From Escherichia coli (GTDB lineage Bacteria > Pseudomonadota > Gammaproteobacteria > Enterobacterales > Enterobacteriaceae): a DNA stretch of 64,000 bases. Made by a program: the position numbers and the translations under genes. Where the stretch lies: NCBI RefSeq assembly GCF_011045215.1, contig NZ_CP049202.1. One strand, written 5' to 3'. Of the stretch, positions 2,704 to 53,902 are shown in pieces (the first letter of the stretch is position 1; each line of letters opens with the position of its first letter). The notes under the pieces were generated by a model that worked only from the letters and a program-made list of their open reading frames with translations, was not told the DNA's origin and did not search any database.

Positions 2704-2800
2704 ATTATAGCCTCCGAAAGGATAAAATACATCAGAACAGGAAAATTGCACAAATATAAAATTTCACTGATAAGTGAAACACATGTTAAGTACAGTTTTG

Positions 2801-2913
2801 ATGCCGCGTCAGCGGCATGGAAGGCGGCACTCCGTTGTAGCATATGGCGCAGGAGTAAAACCGCCGAAGCCCGGCGTAAGCCGATACTGATTGATAGATT
2901 TCACCTTACCCAT
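2801..2913. repeat. conserved ~115-bp structured element, copy A (second copy at 34460-34582)
   Basis: 38-bp and about 57-bp blocks nearly identical to copy B, separated by an 18-bp variable segment; begins with hairpin TGCCGC-GTCA-GCGGCA. Confidence 0.6.
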
Positions 2914-3057
2914 CCCCGGCCCTTGTATGTAATAGGACTCGATGGCTAGCTACCATCATATGAAGCAGAGTGAGCTTGTCCCAGCCCTGAACAGTCAGAC
3001 TTTGATTAGCAGCAAAAGCCCTCTGCTGTAAGCGTCAACGGAGCACCGTATTGACGC

Positions 3058-4650
3058 TTATTTATTGGTGAGAACCACGTTCCATGGCAGGAGTTCGTCA
3101 ACACGGTTGGAGGGCCATTCCGGCAGTACGCTCAGAATATGGCGCAGATACGCTTCCGGATCGATACCGTTCAGACGGCAGGTGCCGATCAGCCCGTATA
3201 GCAGTGCACCACGCTCGCCGCCGTGATCGCTACCGAAGAACACGTAATTTTTCTTTCCAAGACAGACTGCACGAAGCGCTCTTTCCGCTGTGTTATTGTC
3301 CGTCTCCGCCAGTCCGTCATCACTGTAATAACAGAGGGCGTCCCACTGATTCAGTACATAGCTGAACGCTTCGCCCAGTCTGGATTTTTTCGACAGCGTG
3401 CCATTCTTCTCCACCATCCATTCATGCAGCGACGTCAGTAACGCTTTGCTTCGCTGCTGTCTGACTGCAAGACGCTCTGACTCTGGTAATCCCCGTATCT
3501 CATCCTCGATGGCGTACAGTTCACTGATTCGCTTCAGGGCTTCTTCTGCCGTCGCACTTTTGCTGCTGATGTATACATCGTGGATTTTTCTCCGGGCATG
3601 GGCCCAGCACGCAACTTCTGTCAGCGCACCACCTTCACGTTCTGCACTGAACAGCCTGTCATAACCTGTGAACGCATCCGCCTGCAGGATACCCCGGAAG
3701 GGGCGGAGGTGTTGCTCCGGGTGTTTCCCCTGCCGGTTCGGTGAGTACGCGAACCAGACCGCCGGAGGAGATGACGAACCCGCATTGCGATCATCCCGGA
3801 CATACGTCCAGATGCGCCCTGTTTTCGTCTTTTTCAGGCCCGGTGCCAGTACCTTTACCGGTGTGTCGTCAGTGTGAAGCTTGCGGGTATTCATCACATA
3901 ACGGTACAGGGCATCATTCAGCGGTGTCATTAACTGGCAGCACGCGTCAACCCAGTTGGAGAGTAATGCACGGCTCAGTTCGACACCCTGTCGGGCAAAG
4001 ATTTCACTCTGACGATACAGTGGCAGGTGTTCGCAGTATTTTCCCGTTAACACGCGGGCAAGTAATCCGGGGCCCGCGATACCACGCTCTATCGGGCGGG
4101 ACGGCGCCGGTGCTTCAACGATGCAGTCACATTTTATACAGGCTTTTTTTACCCGTTCTGTGCGGATCACTTTCAGGGCGCTGCTCACCAGTTCCAGTTG
4201 TTCTGCACTGACTTCCCCCAGATAATCCAGCTCACCGCCACACTCCGGGCAACAGCTTTCTTCAGACTCCAGACGCTGTATTTCACGGGGAAGGTGTGCC
4301 GGTAACGGACGACGATGGCGCGACTGTCGCAACTGGCGGGGAACCTGTGGATCGTCTTCCCGCCCACTGTAACGATCGCTGTCCTGTTCGCGTTGTTTCA
4401 GCAGGGCCTCAGCCTGTTCAACTTCACGACGCAGTTTTTCAGAACGGGTACCGAACAGCATCCGGCGCAGTTTTTCTATCTGAGCCCGCAGATGTTCTAT
4501 TTCCCGTTCATCTTCTTCGATCTTTTCTTCGGCACGTGCCAGTGCAGAGCGCAGGAAGGCCTCCGTCTCTTCAACCAGACTCAGTTGCTGGTCTTTCTGG
4601 CGGAGCTGGCTTTCCAGTTCTGCAATGCGAATGAGGTATTTCTGACTCAT
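3058..4650 (-). CDS. tnpC: IS66-family transposase TnpC
   Basis: 530 aa; leucine-zipper N-terminus, CxxC zinc motifs, KYxEHLPLYRQ motif, DDE region, C-terminal LPWN. Confidence 0.9.
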   Translation of the reverse strand: MSQKYLIRIAELESQLRQKDQQLSLVEETEAFLRSALARAEEKIEEDEREIEHLRAQIEKLRRMLFGTRSEKLRREVEQAEALLKQREQDSDRYSGREDDPQVPRQLRQSRHRRPLPAHLPREIQRLESEESCCPECGGELDYLGEVSAEQLELVSSALKVIRTERVKKACIKCDCIVEAPAPSRPIERGIAGPGLLARVLTGKYCEHLPLYRQSEIFARQGVELSRALLSNWVDACCQLMTPLNDALYRYVMNTRKLHTDDTPVKVLAPGLKKTKTGRIWTYVRDDRNAGSSSPPAVWFAYSPNRQGKHPEQHLRPFRGILQADAFTGYDRLFSAEREGGALTEVACWAHARRKIHDVYISSKSATAEEALKRISELYAIEDEIRGLPESERLAVRQQRSKALLTSLHEWMVEKNGTLSKKSRLGEAFSYVLNQWDALCYYSDDGLAETDNNTAERALRAVCLGKKNYVFFGSDHGGERGALLYGLIGTCRLNGIDPEAYLRHILSVLPEWPSNRVDELLPWNVVLTNK

Positions 4651-35258: not shown

Positions 35259-36281
35259 CTAGTGCGGTGGCGGGGCAGCCAGCGTCAGTTCAAGCTGACG
35301 CAACTCCCTGATGGCCAGTCGCTTCAGATGGTCATCGGAACAAAAATAGGCTTCATCCGGCGGCAGACGCTTCCTGAGATACTCTGCCATCTCATGAATC
35401 TGCTGGTCGGCAGGCAGTTTCTTCAGGCGATTAGCACGCTTACAGGCTGCAGCTTTCGCCCGACGGTGTTTCAGCGCATCCTGGCTGCGCTGCAGATACC
35501 AGCGTTTTCTGGCCGCATGTACGGAGATATCTTCATCCTCACGCAGTACACCTTCCCGGATGAGCTGCTGGCGGATTTCACTTTCACGCAGCCGCTTCTG
35601 CTGCTGTTCGTGAAGTTTAACCATATCGACGCCCAGCATCTGCCACCCTGCCGGTGTTATCCAGACATAGCGCGGCAGACGCTGGCGGGTTTCACGGTCC
35701 CACATCGTTTCTTCCGACACACCCAGCACACCAAAACGTACCTGTTCGGTCAGCAGACGGGAAAGCCGGGAGACCGTCACTTCCAGTTCCGGAATAACCT
35801 TCCCCTTGCTGTCTTTCGGGCTGATTTCTCTGGCCAGACGGGAAACACTCATGCCTACGGTATGTGTGCCCGCATCACTGAAGCTGACCAGAACCGGCCA
35901 GATGGCATCGAGGAGGCGTTGTTTTTCCGGACGGAAAGCATATTTGCGACCGGCGAACGTCCGTTTCTGCACGTAAAAAGGATGCAGAGACATGTGCATG
36001 CGCAGGCTCTGTTCGCCAGTCACCGGGTCCTTTTTCACCAGGCGGTGATAAGCGTGCCCAAGCTGCCCGCTCAGCGCCTTATAGCGCGCAGGACGATACC
36101 AGGTCGGATTTTCGCATTTGGGTTTAGTGGAGTGCTCACCACGACGACGCTTTGTGCGCTTCCTTTCCGGTTCAACCAGGAAAGTGGTCGCCCTTCCCGC
36201 TTCATAATCTTCCCAGAAACGGATTTGCTCTTCGGGAGGCAACTGAGCCCAGTGGCCTGGACGGGTATTTTTAATCACCAT
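35259..36281 (-). CDS. repA: replication initiator RepA (IncFII RepA superfamily), about 340 aa
   Basis: ATG 36281; internal blocks align with R100 RepA1 ([13 protein letters not shown] / [25 protein letters not shown] / ITRATRALTFLSE); basic C-terminus; oriR and DnaA box downstream. Confidence 0.7.
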
Positions 36282-36804
36282 ACCCACTCCGTAAGACAGC
36301 CAGACGTGCTTCAGTCAGCGCCAACGGAAATATCCCTAAAAACTCAAAAAAACGAGGCGTCAGCGTTATTGTGCAGCGCTTATTGTAAAAATCTGATGAC
36401 GGGGAACAGACTATAAACCCAAAATCTTCTTCCAGTGATTTAATTGCTCTGACAGCTCGCTCAATGGCTAAATGACCATGAGCATTTTTTCTGGCTAATC
36501 CGCAATCAAGTGCAAGTTCGGTTATAGAACGATGCACTTGATTTGAAACAGGATCGTAGTAGAAGCACATGCCTTGCAACAGTGCATCAATAGCTCTGCG
36601 ACGAAGAACGGAAGGCTTGCGTTTACGTTTACCATTAGCGCGCGCGCACGCAGAAGCTATATCGAATGCAAATGTTTCGGTAAACCCCACCGCTTTGCCC
36701 ATTAGCTTCTCACAGAACGGCAGCGTCCTGGCACCTTCACGGGGTGTGAATACCGGATTAGGGTTCTTTACCTGACGGTAATACGTTTGTTGAAGATCAG
36801 TCAC
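36271..36804 (-). CDS. RepA1 N-terminal-domain homologue (about 177 aa), truncated; status (pseudogene versus coupled leader ORF) unresolved
   Basis: [42 protein letters not shown]...[20 protein letters not shown]... closely matches the R100 RepA1 N-terminus as recalled; stop TAA overlaps the repA ATG (ATGGTGATTAA). Confidence 0.5.
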
Positions 36805-36853
36805 ACCATCCTGCACTTACAATGCACAGAAGGAGTGAGCACAGAAAGAAGTC

Positions 36854-36882
36854 TTGAACTTTTCCGGGCATATAACTATACT
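36854..36882 (+). promoter_or_regulatory. sigma70 promoter for copA antisense RNA (-35 TTGAAC, 17-bp spacer, -10 TATACT)
   Basis: Near-consensus hexamers at 36854-36859 and 36877-36882, facing opposite to repA. Confidence 0.5.
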
Positions 36883-36888
36883 CCCCGC

Positions 36889-36981
36889 ATAGCTGAATTG
36901 TTGGCTATACGGTTTTTAGATGGCCCCGGTAATCTTTCTAGCTCGCCAAAGTTAAAGAAGATTATCGGGGTTTTCACTTTT
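36889..36981 (+). ncRNA. copA: CopA-like antisense RNA (replication copy-number control)
   Basis: About 92 nt between the promoter and a U-tract; 13-bp stem CCCCGGUAAUCUU/AAGAUUAUCGGGG with a loop containing CGCCAAA; position between repA2 and repA1 as in IncFII. Confidence 0.55.
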
Positions 36982-37104
36982 CTGGCCCCTGTAAATCCAC
37001 ATCAGAACCAGTTCCCTGCCACCTTATGGTGTGGCCAGCCATAAAATTCCTTAAACGATCAGCAATCTATCACTCACGCCTGAGATAAGCAATAATGTGA
37101 ATAT

Positions 37105-37362
37105 TCACGAAATCGCTCTGCGTTTCAGCTCTGATTCAATCAGTTTTTCAAGCATCTGCGCCTGGGTAATACCTTCCTCATCCGCCAGTTCACTCAGCCT
37201 GTCTTTTAACCGGGCCTGGATAACCGCATGAAAAGCCTTATGAGTGTTGCTTCTGCGAGCCAGAGAAGCTCTTTGTCTCTCTCTGGCCGGAACAGGGTTA
37301 CCTTTCCGGTATGCACGCTTAGTGCCTGATGAGGAAGTCACTGCATTTTCTGTCTGCGGCAT
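37105..37362 (-). CDS. repA2: RepA2/CopB transcriptional repressor of repA
   Basis: 85 aa; [11 protein letters not shown]...[19 protein letters not shown] parallels R100 RepA2; position upstream of copA and repA1. Confidence 0.8.
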
Positions 37363-37432
37363 CTCGCCTCCTCAATACTCAAACAGGGATCGTTTCGCAG
37401 AGGATACTACAGTTTTTTTTAATCAGCGACTT

Positions 37433-37563
37433 GAAAGTTGTGACGATGACATGTGTTGGCGCACAAATCATGTCTGATTACGACCGTTTAATGTGATTTT
37501 GATAATGAAATGACTGAAAAGCAGGAAATGCCTTAACCTGTGTGCCCCCGGGCGGGGCTGGCG
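37433..37563. repeat. about 130-bp direct repeat, copy 1 (repA2 upstream region)
   Basis: About 90 percent identical to 38553-38676; the two copies bracket the GNAT/RHH toxin-antitoxin module. Confidence 0.7.
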
Positions 37564-37669: not shown

Positions 37670-38152
37670 TCAGACTTTATAAAATAAGGTGTCAGGTGCC
37701 ACAACTGACTGGACAAAACCAAAACGCTCATAAAACGCTCTGGCGTCATCATCAATTGCATGCACCATAACCGCCTTAACGCCAACCTGTTCAGCCACAT
37801 TTACAACCCGGTGAATAGCATCACTCAGCAGCCATTTACCGAAACCATGCCCCTGGGTACAAACATCAACAGCCAGACGCCCTAACAGAACAACAGGAAC
37901 AGGATTAGGCATGTTATGCCGCAAACTGCGCCCAAGCTCGGCATGTGTGACGGAACCCGTAGCTAATGAGTAGAACCCCACAACACGTAAAGTCCCCTCC
38001 AGGCAAATAACGAACGTGCGGGAAGCATTGAGCATCTGGTTTTTCATAGCCCGACCACGTAACCAGTTACTTAGCACCTCATTTCCACAGTCAAATGGCT
38101 GAAGTATATGCTCATCCGTCAGCAATGCCGGCGCGGTGACATTTATTTCCAT
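37670..38152 (-). CDS. GNAT-family acetyltransferase toxin (TacT/KacT/AtaT-like)
   Basis: 160 aa GNAT fold motifs (...LGRLAVDVCTQGHGFGKWLL...); overlaps the upstream RHH antitoxin gene by 10 bp. Confidence 0.75.
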   Translation of the reverse strand: MEINVTAPALLTDEHILQPFDCGNEVLSNWLRGRAMKNQMLNASRTFVICLEGTLRVVGFYSLATGSVTHAELGRSLRHNMPNPVPVVLLGRLAVDVCTQGHGFGKWLLSDAIHRVVNVAEQVGVKAVMVHAIDDDARAFYERFGFVQSVVAPDTLFYKV

Positions 38153-38433
38153 TCAGGCTTTACCGCCATCAGACGTTCACGCCCTTCTGCATTCTGCACA
38201 GGAGCTTCCAGTTGCGTAATAAACGAATCATAACGTTCGTTATCCAGCACAAATAAGCGTTGATCCAGGATAATGTTTTTAGCTTCCTGGTAAGCCAGTT
38301 CAATGATGAAATCAGTACGGTTCTTATTGACCAGGCTCGCAGCATAATCAATAACGGCTCGTTCCTCATCAGTTGCCCGGATGTTAATCTGGTTTTCTCG
38401 CGGTGTTTTACGGACGCTTGCAGCTGTAGACAT
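38143..38433 (-). CDS. DUF1778-type RHH antitoxin (TacA/KacA-like)
   Basis: ATG 38433 with GAGG Shine-Dalgarno; about 96 aa; ...INIRATDEERAVIDYAASL... Confidence 0.7.
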   Translation of the reverse strand: MSTAASVRKTPRENQINIRATDEERAVIDYAASLVNKNRTDFIIELAYQEAKNIILDQRLFVLDNERYDSFITQLEAPVQNAEGRERLMAVKPEWK

Positions 38434-38552
38434 AAAAACCTCAATTGGTAACAATTTGCTATACAATTAATGTTATCGCAAATGGTAACAAAACGCTATA
38501 CAAAATCACTTACGGGAAAAGTGATCACTGATAAAAACAATGACAGAGGCCT

Positions 38553-38676
38553 GAAAATTGTGACGATGATATATGCTGGCGCACAAATCATGTCTGATTA
38601 CGACCGTTTAATGTGATTTCGATAATGAAATAACTGAAAAGCAGGAAATGCCTTAACCTGTGTGCCGGCCCCGGGC
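38553..38676. repeat. about 130-bp direct repeat, copy 2 (upstream of the toxin-antitoxin module)
   Basis: See 37433-37563. Confidence 0.7.
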
Positions 38677-38765: not shown

Positions 38766-38915
38766 TTACTTCCGTGCTTCGTAGGCCAGAGTTATCTGCA
38801 CCACTGTATTTCTCCTGTGAATATTCAGCTCACACAACCGTTCCCTGAATATCAGTGAAAAACACAACAACGTGGCGCACACAGCGAGCAACCCTATAAG
38901 GGCATATTTCGTCAT
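38766..38915 (-). CDS. srnB: Hok/Gef/SrnB-family type I toxin (49 aa)
   Basis: MTKYALIGLLAVCATLLCFSLIFRERLCELNIHRRNTVVQITLAYEARK: one transmembrane helix plus conserved LCEL; GAGAGG Shine-Dalgarno; in-frame upstream extension from 38972 resembles a mok/srnB-prime reading frame. Confidence 0.75.
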   Translation of the reverse strand: MTKYALIGLLAVCATLLCFSLIFRERLCELNIHRRNTVVQITLAYEARK

Positions 38916-39260
38916 AAACTTTGACCTCTCTGCAAGGAAGAGGCTACAATCAGTAGTGTTAAGGTACTTCATGCAGACCTCACGAGTTAATGGATTAACG
39001 AGTGGGGTCTTCGCATTTCTGGTACCTGCGTCTTGCCTGAACCAGAAAGGCTCAGACACCCGCAGCGATAATACCACATTCCCGTTTGCCGGCCATGTAC
39101 CTGCATTTTCCGGTTATTATTATAAAAACGCCGGGGACGGGGAAAATTTGCTTTTTCCCGTTTCCGGGGTTGGACAACTGAGCAACGCGAAGGCGTCAGT
39201 TATTTCTGTTTATTACATTCTTCTGTATATTTTCTTTTTACAATTCGACACTGCCTTATC

Positions 39261-51059: not shown

Positions 51060-53902
51060 AATGGTCCCTTCAGTTGATTCTTTTTCTCATCAATCATTTT
51101 TTTCACAGTCTCTTCTGATGGCTCAGGTATTATCTTTTGACTTTCTCGCTCTTCATTATATTTATTATTCTGAGATAATGCTTCTGTTTTATGGTGATTT
51201 TGTAGTTCAGAATACTGTTTTCTTACAATATTTTCCTCGCCTCGGATGCTGTTCTGAGTATCTCCGATATTACCTCGATATTCTGTGACCATATTATCAA
51301 CCTGATGTTTTACATCATCACGGATATTACTGTCCTGCGTTCTTTGATCAATAATGGCCTGATGCCCCTGATGGTCAGCAATAATATCCTGGCTGCCACC
51401 ACCCGAAGGTACGCTCTCCATTCCTTTACCAATATCGCCACGGGATTCACGCCAGGCATTATCAACACCAGGCTGTATCTGTTCCTGCACAAAAGACCAG
51501 GCCATCGCCCGACGGCGTTCTGCAATCTCCGGCGAACTGGTATTTGTCAGAATAGCTTCGGCATCCTGCGGTGCGTGTTTCATCACATACTGTGCAAACT
51601 GTTGCGACAAATCTTCACTCATCTGCCCACTCATGCTTTCAGTACGGGATGCCATTTCAGCATATTCATGGCTGCGGGTCATATTCGTCGTGTACTGGTC
51701 GTAACTCTGTTTCGCTGAGTTCAGGGCTGCAGACAGCTGGTCCACACGGGAATCGGCATTATTGTCAGTATGGCTGCCGGACTCACTGACTTTGCGACTG
51801 GTAAAGTAATCGCTGGCCTCTTTAAAGTCCTTACTGGCTTTAGCATCGATATCATGTCGAGCATCATGGGTAGCCCTGCTGCCACTACTTGCAGAATGTG
51901 AATCATCATCCGTTCGATCAAGACTTCCCTTAAATCCGCCTCTGACACCAACTCCACCACCAACCCCAAGAATTTTAGGTTTAATCCCCCATTCAGCATG
52001 AGCATCTGCATATCCGCCATACGAGAACTTAGAACCTGTTGATGCCAGTTCCTGAGTCGCCTGCTCATTACTGATATTATGCGCTTTCGCATAGCTTTCC
52101 ACTGCACTGCGCATACGGCTGGCCATCATGGAGTCCTGTGCGCTCATCGTGCTGTCAGCGCCACCGGTGACAGAATCACTGCTCCCCCGGTTAGAACCAA
52201 ACTGACTGAGCGTATTCCAGGCACTGGCAATACTGCTGCTGAACCCATGCAGGGCGCTTTCTGCTCTGTTCGATGCCTCCCGGGCCATTTCCTGTTGTGC
52301 CGCCGCAATCTGACGCGTTGCATTGATACCGACCGGTAAACGGGACATCGCTCCGCTTGCATCCATAACCATATTACCGTCACGGGTCTGTGTGGCGGTT
52401 GCGCCACTGCCGGTCTGGTACATCATCTGACCAAACGACGTGGTGCTGTTGGTGCTCCAGCTGAAGCCGTTCACGTTTTCCGTCTGCATGTTGCCGTAGG
52501 AGTAATTACCGTCAACCACACTGCCTGCTGCACTGGCCGTCGGACTGATAGATGAAGAGGCGAAGTGGCTGTACACACTGGAAAAACCTGCGCCAAGGCC
52601 TTTTACCATCATCCATGACAACGGGGGTATCATGACAGATATATATCCGGCAGTGGACGCCAGGTCGGAGTATTTCAGCTGTATCTGAGAGAGTTCAGAG
52701 AGCACGACCGGTGCACCATTCTGCTTTGCATAGAATGTCATGGCACTGTTCAGAATGGCATACAGCAACGGCCAGGTCTGGAACCACATCAGGGCAAACA
52801 CATAGCCCTTCAGTACAGACAGCGTTAACCTGTTGAAGACCGCCGCCAGTACCAGGAGCGGGAAGATACCAATGGTAATGCCCACCAGAATGGTCTGCAC
52901 CATCGGCAGGTTTCGCATCAGCACATGACCAATGGAGACATGTGCCAGACGCTGTTTCTCCATCGACGAGGTCGTGGCCAGACTGACCAGGCTGGCGGTA
53001 TCACCGTTACGGGCTGCATTACTGGTGATACCCTCTTTCAGGGCATTCATGGTGACGTTCTGGCGCATAATATGGCTGGCAGACTGGCTGGAGCCGTAGA
53101 AATAACTGTAACTGTCACTCACCAGTTGCCTGAATAACAGGTCCGGGTCCGGTCTGCCGCCAAATATCTGCTGGACATAATAATGCCAGGTCTTGCCTCC
53201 GGTATTCGTATCAAAATTCAGCTTATCCTTCAGTCCGACGGATGCGTCCTTACAGGACACAAACGGCTCTGAACTGTGCAGAAAACTGTAATTATTATTC
53301 GGCACCTGACGTAAAGGGCTGGGCTGAGAAAAGATTATGGTGTACGGGTCAGAGGAGGCCATCAGGTCTTCCAGCGTGTATTTGTGATTCAGGTAAATAT
53401 CACCCAGCACGCAGTTCTGGACGTAGTCCTGAAACAGATTGATGATTTCCGGATTCCGGGACAGAAAATCGGTGCTTTTCACAATCAGGTTCGCCCCGAA
53501 CAGCATGCCTGTCTTGCTGTAGGTGGCGCTGTCAGGCTGAGCGAACACCATCTCATAGCCGGCCACCATTGCATGCCCGATACGGGTCGTCAGTGAAAGT
53601 GGCATCGCCAGTCCGACCGGCACATTATCCACCCGATGGACTTTGACCAGGTCACTGTTATCAATAATCTGCACCGACGTGCGGACATTAACCAGCAGGC
53701 TGATAAGCACAAACACGGCCACCCAGCCCAGCAAATCCATCACGTTGTGCCGCTGTACCCATATCACGGCCACCGCGAGAACAGACAATGTGAGCGCAAT
53801 TTTTTCAATGGAATCCCACGTCCTGGTTCCCATAAAGGCGGCAATGGCGTTCAGGTTATTCCGCAACCATTCACCACCGGCAATCACATAAACTTCATTC
53901 AC
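51056..53902 (-). CDS. traG: TraG mating-pair stabilisation / pilus assembly protein
   Basis: 948 aa; MNEVYVIAGGEWLRN... N-terminus; F-type position and length. Confidence 0.9.
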   Translation of the reverse strand: MNEVYVIAGGEWLRNNLNAIAAFMGTRTWDSIEKIALTLSVLAVAVIWVQRHNVMDLLGWVAVFVLISLLVNVRTSVQIIDNSDLVKVHRVDNVPVGLAMPLSLTTRIGHAMVAGYEMVFAQPDSATYSKTGMLFGANLIVKSTDFLSRNPEIINLFQDYVQNCVLGDIYLNHKYTLEDLMASSDPYTIIFSQPSPLRQVPNNNYSFLHSSEPFVSCKDASVGLKDKLNFDTNTGGKTWHYYVQQIFGGRPDPDLLFRQLVSDSYSYFYGSSQSASHIMRQNVTMNALKEGITSNAARNGDTASLVSLATTSSMEKQRLAHVSIGHVLMRNLPMVQTILVGITIGIFPLLVLAAVFNRLTLSVLKGYVFALMWFQTWPLLYAILNSAMTFYAKQNGAPVVLSELSQIQLKYSDLASTAGYISVMIPPLSWMMVKGLGAGFSSVYSHFASSSISPTASAAGSVVDGNYSYGNMQTENVNGFSWSTNSTTSFGQMMYQTGSGATATQTRDGNMVMDASGAMSRLPVGINATRQIAAAQQEMAREASNRAESALHGFSSSIASAWNTLSQFGSNRGSSDSVTGGADSTMSAQDSMMASRMRSAVESYAKAHNISNEQATQELASTGSKFSYGGYADAHAEWGIKPKILGVGGGVGVRGGFKGSLDRTDDDSHSASSGSRATHDARHDIDAKASKDFKEASDYFTSRKVSESGSHTDNNADSRVDQLSAALNSAKQSYDQYTTNMTRSHEYAEMASRTESMSGQMSEDLSQQFAQYVMKHAPQDAEAILTNTSSPEIAERRRAMAWSFVQEQIQPGVDNAWRESRGDIGKGMESVPSGGGSQDIIADHQGHQAIIDQRTQDSNIRDDVKHQVDNMVTEYRGNIGDTQNSIRGEENIVRKQYSELQNHHKTEALSQNNKYNEERESQKIIPEPSEETVKKMIDEKKNQLKGPL

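Follow-up and report, generated by a model that had tools for sequence, protein, structure and literature searches.

A CopA-type antisense RNA gene with an intact control region ahead of a hybrid RepA pair in Escherichia coli

The window analysed here is a stretch of 64,000 nt of Escherichia coli DNA (contig NZ_CP049202.1 of assembly GCF_011045215.1) which carries a plasmid replication region on its minus strand. The gene copB (repA2; 37105-37362) was recognized by PF10723 (E = 3.8e-30) and NF010256 (132 bits) and encodes an auxiliary repressor that acts on transcription from the repA promoter. It is followed by tap (36797-36871), a leader peptide gene of 24 aa (PF08048, E = 7.9e-14; TIGR03475, 62.9 bits), by a reading frame of 177 codons with a GTG start, termed RepA' (36271-36804), and by a full-length RepA of 340 aa of the RepFIC/I-complex type (35259-36281), all in the same direction. 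The plus strand between copB and tap carries the gene of the antisense RNA CopA (36889-36979 by its RF00042 match, with a U-tract reaching 36981). Opposite to it on the minus strand (36889-36979) lies CopT, the target in the leader of the repA mRNA with the loop 5'-UUGGCG-3', in cis-antisense geometry. A preliminary description of this DNA had proposed such a gene between repA2 and repA1, as in IncFII copy-number control. Its placement between repA2/copB and tap/repA is borne out by the PF10723, PF08048 and TIGR03475 matches, and only the normal repA1 expected downstream of tap is not there.

In an Rfam 15 scan covering the entire window, a check already suggested in the preliminary description, the gene was matched end to end by RF00042 (CopA-like RNA) with 97.5 bits, above the gathering score of 60 (E = 2.8e-17). 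The match is untruncated (model positions 1-92 of 92) and gives an RNA of 91 nt. The promoter described earlier, with the -35 hexamer TTGAAC (36854-36859), a spacer of 17 bp and the -10 hexamer TATACT (36877-36882), is indeed present at 36854-36882 (plus strand) according to both a promoter scan and reading of the sequence. The transcription start was placed at A36889, 7 nt past the -10 hexamer. This was the sole sigma-70-like site reported on either strand between 36200 and 37700, and in the same interval no minus-strand site that could serve as a sigma-70-like promoter of the sense copB/repA mRNA exceeded the threshold of the scan. The promoter match of 9/12 is by itself within chance, as shuffled sequences yield 2.2 +/- 1.5 such sites per region; the gene stands beyond chance because of its Rfam score, the z-score of its fold and its conservation in thousands of plasmids.

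Folding of the RNA gave a minimum free energy (MFE) of -34 kcal/mol (z = -4.35), and 0 of 200 shuffled sequences folded as well. The MFE structure comprises stem-loop I (36889-36908), a single-stranded linker of 10 nt and stem-loop II (36919-36975), which doubles as the terminator hairpin (both on the plus strand). Stem-loop II is a long interrupted helix with 23 pairs, and the 13-bp stem reported before (CCCCGGUAAUCUU/AAGAUUAUCGGGG) is real and constitutes the perfectly paired core of that helix. The apical hexaloop CGCCAA (36944-36949) is complementary to the UUGGCG of CopT; both the loop motif CGCCAAA (36944-36950) and the U-tract of the preliminary description were found. Its statement that the stem-loop lies about 92 nt after the promoter was loose, since the stem-loop begins about 30 nt and ends about 87 nt past the start, and the figure fits the length of the RNA better. 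The 3' tail after the helix of stem-loop II reads UUUUCACUUUU (36971-36981). A terminator scan made no call at this hairpin because it counts at most 20 stem pairs and needs at least 5 T in the 8 bases after the stem, the tail there being UUUUCACU. The minus-strand fold of CopT mirrors that of CopA (z = -2.23).

Conservation was assessed in an alignment of the window with 14 homologues of 80-98% identity (15 sequences). The promoter hexamers are unchanged across the alignment except for one TTGAAT, the CGCCAAA loop and the complement of the tap Shine-Dalgarno (SD) sequence are invariant or nearly so, and the variable positions cluster within stem-loop I, within the linker and in stem-loop II towards its upper end. 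When laid on the MFE structure of the window, 91.3% of the alignment cells are paired, versus 38-53% after a shift of the 3' partners by 1-3 columns. Compensatory changes on both sides occur at 3 pairs, and the covariation score of 0.142 (0.096 in shuffled alignments) was reached by 0 of 500 shuffles. In stem-loop I, the pair of columns 40 and 51 changes from CG to AU in 4 sequences, and the loop-closing pair of stem-loop II switches between GC and CG among the homologues. The fold is thus stable as well as conserved with covariation, which is supportive of the family model, the sequences being too closely related to count as independent proof. By megablast, the CopA region is matched in more than 5000 PLSDB plasmids and in 837 of 5426 complete E. 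coli genomes.

The gene has its own promoter and an intrinsic terminator, is transcribed between copB and tap in antisense to the leader of the repA mRNA, and is a member of the CopA family by every testable criterion. The RNA as such is ordinary and already known from the textbook case of R1/IncFII copy-number control. Comparison with R1, made through the Rfam model and the copy on the Shigella plasmid pINV, showed the same two stem-loops, the CGCCAA loop, an own promoter of the constitutive type, the U-tract terminator and the same position between copB and tap, 2 nt from the SD sequence of tap. Unlike R1/IncFII CopA, the RNA of the window has a linker with an extra U, reading AGAU and not AGUG, and differs in the upper part of stem-loop II near the loop. 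In IncFII plasmids, differences in upper stem-loop II distinguish incompatibility alleles. The window copy and the pINV copy are 92.4% identical over 132 nt, and the pINV CopA is in turn reported to be 93% identical to R1 CopA (PMC12779154).

In R1 and pINV, CopA is constitutive and unstable, with a decay driven by PcnB and RNase E, and its concentration follows the plasmid copy number. A kissing contact between the CopA loop and the UUGGCG loop of CopT leads to a complex that blocks the translation of tap, to which the translation of repA is coupled, so that less initiator is made and the replication frequency falls; CopB represses the repA promoter in addition (PMC4344636; PMC12779154).

The window holds every sequence feature needed for a mechanism of this type. 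The 5' end of CopA and the corresponding end of CopT are 2 nt away from the SD sequence of tap, GGGGAG at 36886-36881, so a CopA-CopT duplex would abut the ribosome-binding site of tap, as in R1. CopA would accordingly pair with the fully complementary CopT leader of the mRNA carrying tap and repA, the complex would block tap, and the coupled translation of RepA' would fall, while CopB would provide additional transcriptional repression of the repA promoter. By analogy with R1 and pINV, the expression of CopA, its transcript ends, its instability, its inhibitory action and its role in copy number and incompatibility can be presumed for this locus. We are confident that this CopA-family antisense RNA is the main copy-number regulator of the IncFII-type module, probably governing the initiator through a translational relay.

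What lies downstream of tap departs from the known arrangements. RepA' corresponds to the N-terminal approximately 62% of an IncFII-family RepA: it was matched by PF02387 with 52 bits and by NF040977 over profile positions 1-166 of 266, and reached 183.8 bits against TIGR03474, where the cut-off is 446.9. The stop codon of tap overlaps the GTG start of RepA' inside GTGACTGA, and the stop codon of RepA' (TAA, 36273-36271) lies 8 nt inside the second repA. The 340-aa RepA encoded by the latter covers the full profile NF040977 (positions 1-266, 316 bits) and is the probable working initiator; a sequence search of the PDB with this protein gave no match.

For a canonical IncFII replicon, tap would have to be coupled to a full-length RepA1 of about 285 aa, whereas in the window it is coupled to the half-length, 177-codon RepA'. 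The RepFIC replicon of E. coli C5 plasmid B (NZ_CP010124.1, typed IncFIC) has the same copB-CopA-tap module, its CopA scoring 106 bits, and the same 340-aa RepA, with 98.3% DNA identity from position 36254 downwards only. Its tap is directly coupled to the 340-aa RepA by a GTGGCTGA overlap, whereas 534 nt of the RepA' reading frame separate the two genes in the window, and the 340-aa RepA also starts with 9 different codons (MVIKNTRPG in the window, VAERYISQR in plasmid B). The plasmids of the I-complex (IncI1/Igamma/B/O/K/Z) share a homologous initiator, the IncI-gamma/K1 repA being 94.6% identical at the DNA level, again only from 36254 downwards. They likewise combine an antisense RNA (Inc RNA or RNAI) with a leader ORF, repY, translationally coupled to the initiator, and the IncI-gamma/K1 record shows the same UUGGCG/CGCCAA loop hexamer. 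Unlike the window, that record carries the repZ pseudoknot PK-repZ (RF01087) with 194.5 bits; the Rfam 15 scan found no RF01087 anywhere in the window, where control is by the IncFII-type module, and there is no homology to the I-complex record upstream of codon 10. The second repA would therefore be without antisense control of its own, and its control by an I-complex Inc RNA and pseudoknot was rejected for the same two reasons. The locus is thus a hybrid of IncFII, RepFIC and I-complex replicons, a layout of which we found no description in the part of the literature covered by our search.

This layout is not confined to the window. RepA'-type sequences with at least 90% identity occur in exactly 30 records of PLSDB, and the repA'-repA junction is common to about 30 plasmids of PLSDB. 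Carriers include p55989 of the enteroaggregative E. coli (EAEC) strain 55989, several E. coli plasmids of 72-78 kb, E. albertii plasmids and pWY517IncF. One further candidate, pAA-EA11, was discarded as a hybrid, its replicon at that site being a different, non-hybrid FII copy, and served only as a divergent CopA homologue. CopA is intact in the other hybrids as well as in standard FII and FIC replicons (84-106 bits). The CopA alleles of the hybrids differ from each other in the alignment, which suggests that exchange of the control module took place independently of the junction.

Two observations concern the history of individual copies. In the window, CopA, tap and RepA' are identical to those of plasmid A of E. 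coli C5, unlike the second repA, which over 35259-36254 is nearer to plasmid B of the same strain (98.3% DNA identity) than to plasmid A (dS 0.19); this mixed affinity suggests a recombination within the initiator gene between co-resident or related plasmids. On pWY517IncF (NZ_CP076260.1), the interval from tap to the following gene (2766-3904) has no annotated copB CDS, an AS-pc02 RNA (RF02876, 152.5 bits) is found at 3825-4010 and CopA is retained with 83.8 bits; copB may have been lost or left unannotated in this lineage.

With moderate confidence, we infer that CopA governs the real initiator by a two-step translational relay, from tap to RepA' and from RepA' to RepA. In this relay, the overlap of the RepA' stop with the start of the second repA would provide a second coupling step with the geometry of the tap-stop/repA-start overlap. 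In six hybrids, the RepA' reading frame is intact and ends in LRSGYGD*, its TAA lying inside the ATGGTGATTAA of the second repA, and the sub-string GTGATTAA of this junction has the same geometry as the overlap of tap stop and repA start in FII (GTGACTGA) and in FIC. The relay is favoured because RepA' is intact with an invariant stop/start overlap and appears to be selected, because PK-repZ is absent, and because the SD sequences of RepA' and of the second repA lie inside predicted hairpins, although the stability of these hairpins is no better than that of shuffled sequences (z about -1.2). That the I-complex/FIC homology of the second repA begins only at codon 10 was also counted in its favour. 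If the relay is true, it would represent a natural case of replicon modularity, with the antisense module of one family wired to the initiator of another via a retained half-gene, and a testable case of translational coupling re-used after recombination. As a separate observation, the loop motif of CopT, UUGGCG, which is complementary to the CopA loop, occurs a second time at 36319-36324 (minus strand) within the 3' end of RepA', in a predicted hairpin that buries the SD sequence of the second repA. This could be a chance occurrence, as a 6-mer is short and the motif is also part of coding sequence (Pro-Leu-Ala).

Selection on the two genes was estimated by the Nei-Gojobori method among the hybrids. 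For RepA', dN/dS ranges from 0.04 to 0.31, with 0.18-0.20 for the deepest pairs (Sd 22-24, Nd 14-17), and the values for the second repA are similar (0.09-0.17). On these ratios, RepA' is to be regarded as under purifying selection. The copy of pWY517IncF has an in-frame deletion of two codons after which the reading frame stays open. The dN/dS values, the integrity of the reading frame and this in-frame deletion do not support RepA' as a decaying pseudogene. The notion that a full-length donor had passed on the low dN/dS was likewise set aside: the next-best full-length RepA in PLSDB is below 70% identity, so a donor for the substitutions in RepA' is not evident there, donors beyond PLSDB being possible.

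A more specific version of the relay, which we put forward tentatively as a possibility below even chance, places CopA at the head of three cistrons, with the IncFII module and RepA' fused to a RepFIC/I-complex initiator and RepA' serving both as leader and as selected protein. RepA' would have been joined in frame and given a tap-like 3' end, the initiator would have lost its own antisense control, and the protein RepA' would be, for example, a truncated initiator fragment modulating replication or incompatibility.

Every hybrid examined was also typed IncFIB, so the hybrid replicon may not be the driver of replication. CopA may be genuine and expressed while the hybrid replicon is auxiliary or vestigial; IncFIB would then drive the plasmid, and CopA would act mainly as an incompatibility determinant in trans against plasmids with the same CopT allele. 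The RefSeq label of RepA' as a pseudogene ('incomplete; missing C-terminus') is in line with this, and the F plasmid itself harbors a similar RepFIC remnant that is disrupted. A relic should gather frameshifts and stop codons, however, whereas all hybrids have an intact junction, an intact tap and an intact promoter and loop of CopA, the deletion in pWY517IncF preserves the reading frame, and both RepA' and the second repA show strong purifying selection. We therefore consider an auxiliary role of the hybrid replicon somewhat unlikely.

The relay from CopA to the 340-aa RepA would also fail if CopA controlled only tap and RepA', with the second repA escaping and RepA' being the regulated product, such as a modulating fragment. 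The second repA has an SD sequence of its own (GGAG, spacing of 5 nt) from which it could be translated independently of RepA'. Moreover, RepA' keeps the conserved N-terminal core of its family and is conserved in its amino acids and not just open, which a pure leader would not need. Such an initiator, however, would be without negative feedback and liable to runaway replication, no other control element having been found upstream; in addition, the invariant overlap of stop and start has the same geometry as the coupling of tap and repA, and the SD sequence is predicted to be paired, the latter being weak evidence. An independent second repA thus seems unlikely to us.

The preliminary description had flagged the CopA gene because such RNAs are often left unannotated, and this holds: none of 30 sampled RefSeq records of E. 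coli has an RNA feature at this site. The closest record, plasmid A of E. coli C5 (NZ_CP010123.1), is 100% identical over 36780-37100, 97.8% identical over 5.3 kb and 97% identical over 70% of a 15-kb query. Its RefSeq annotation lists tap, copB and two repA features, with RepA' marked as a pseudogene, and no RNA; the numbering leaves out the locus tags RS28410 and RS28435 precisely at the sites of CopA and Sok. At homologous CopA sites, CDSs named 'replication protein RepA' or 'hypothetical protein' occur in some RefSeq records, and CDSs named 'plasmid copy control protein CopA' or 'CopA/IncA' in some records that derive from GenBank; CDSs over CopA were present in three of the records compared. 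These names and the reading frames open on both strands (36787-37044, plus, 85 aa; 36876-36977, minus, 33 aa) might be taken to mean that the stretch encodes a small protein, a reading hardly credible and rejected here given that neither frame has a Pfam or NCBIfam match, that the variation among homologues tracks base-pairing (compensatory changes, 91% paired), that indels of 1-3 nt in the upper stem of the aligned homologues would shift any frame, and that the covariance model matches in full length. The CDSs annotated over CopA rather look like legacy mis-annotation of an RNA gene.

The value of the CopA finding therefore lies mostly in annotation, the main determinant of copy number and incompatibility in IncF-type plasmids being absent from RefSeq in the closest record and in all 30 sampled ones. 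The control region ahead of the odd RepA pair, to which the preliminary description had pointed, is intact, and this is needed to interpret the pair; only the hybrid context is perhaps worth experiments.

The neighbourhood of the replicon showed some further features. A cassette of a GNAT toxin and a TacA-like antitoxin (37670-38152 and 38143-38466, minus strand) lies between copB and hok/sok, which follows copB directly in the standard FII and FIC plasmids compared. It is flanked by a direct repeat of 123 nt (37424-37546 and 38544-38666, plus strand; 93% identical), and has the look of an insertion, with the region upstream of copB duplicated in the process. The Sok antitoxin RNA at 38905-39061 (minus strand; RF01794, 94.3 bits) adjoins the Hok/Gef ORF and, like CopA, has no RNA annotation in the closest RefSeq record. 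Finally, a full-length match to RF02874 ('Antisense to traG', 108.7 bits) is located at 53077-53162 (plus strand) in the F-type transfer region.
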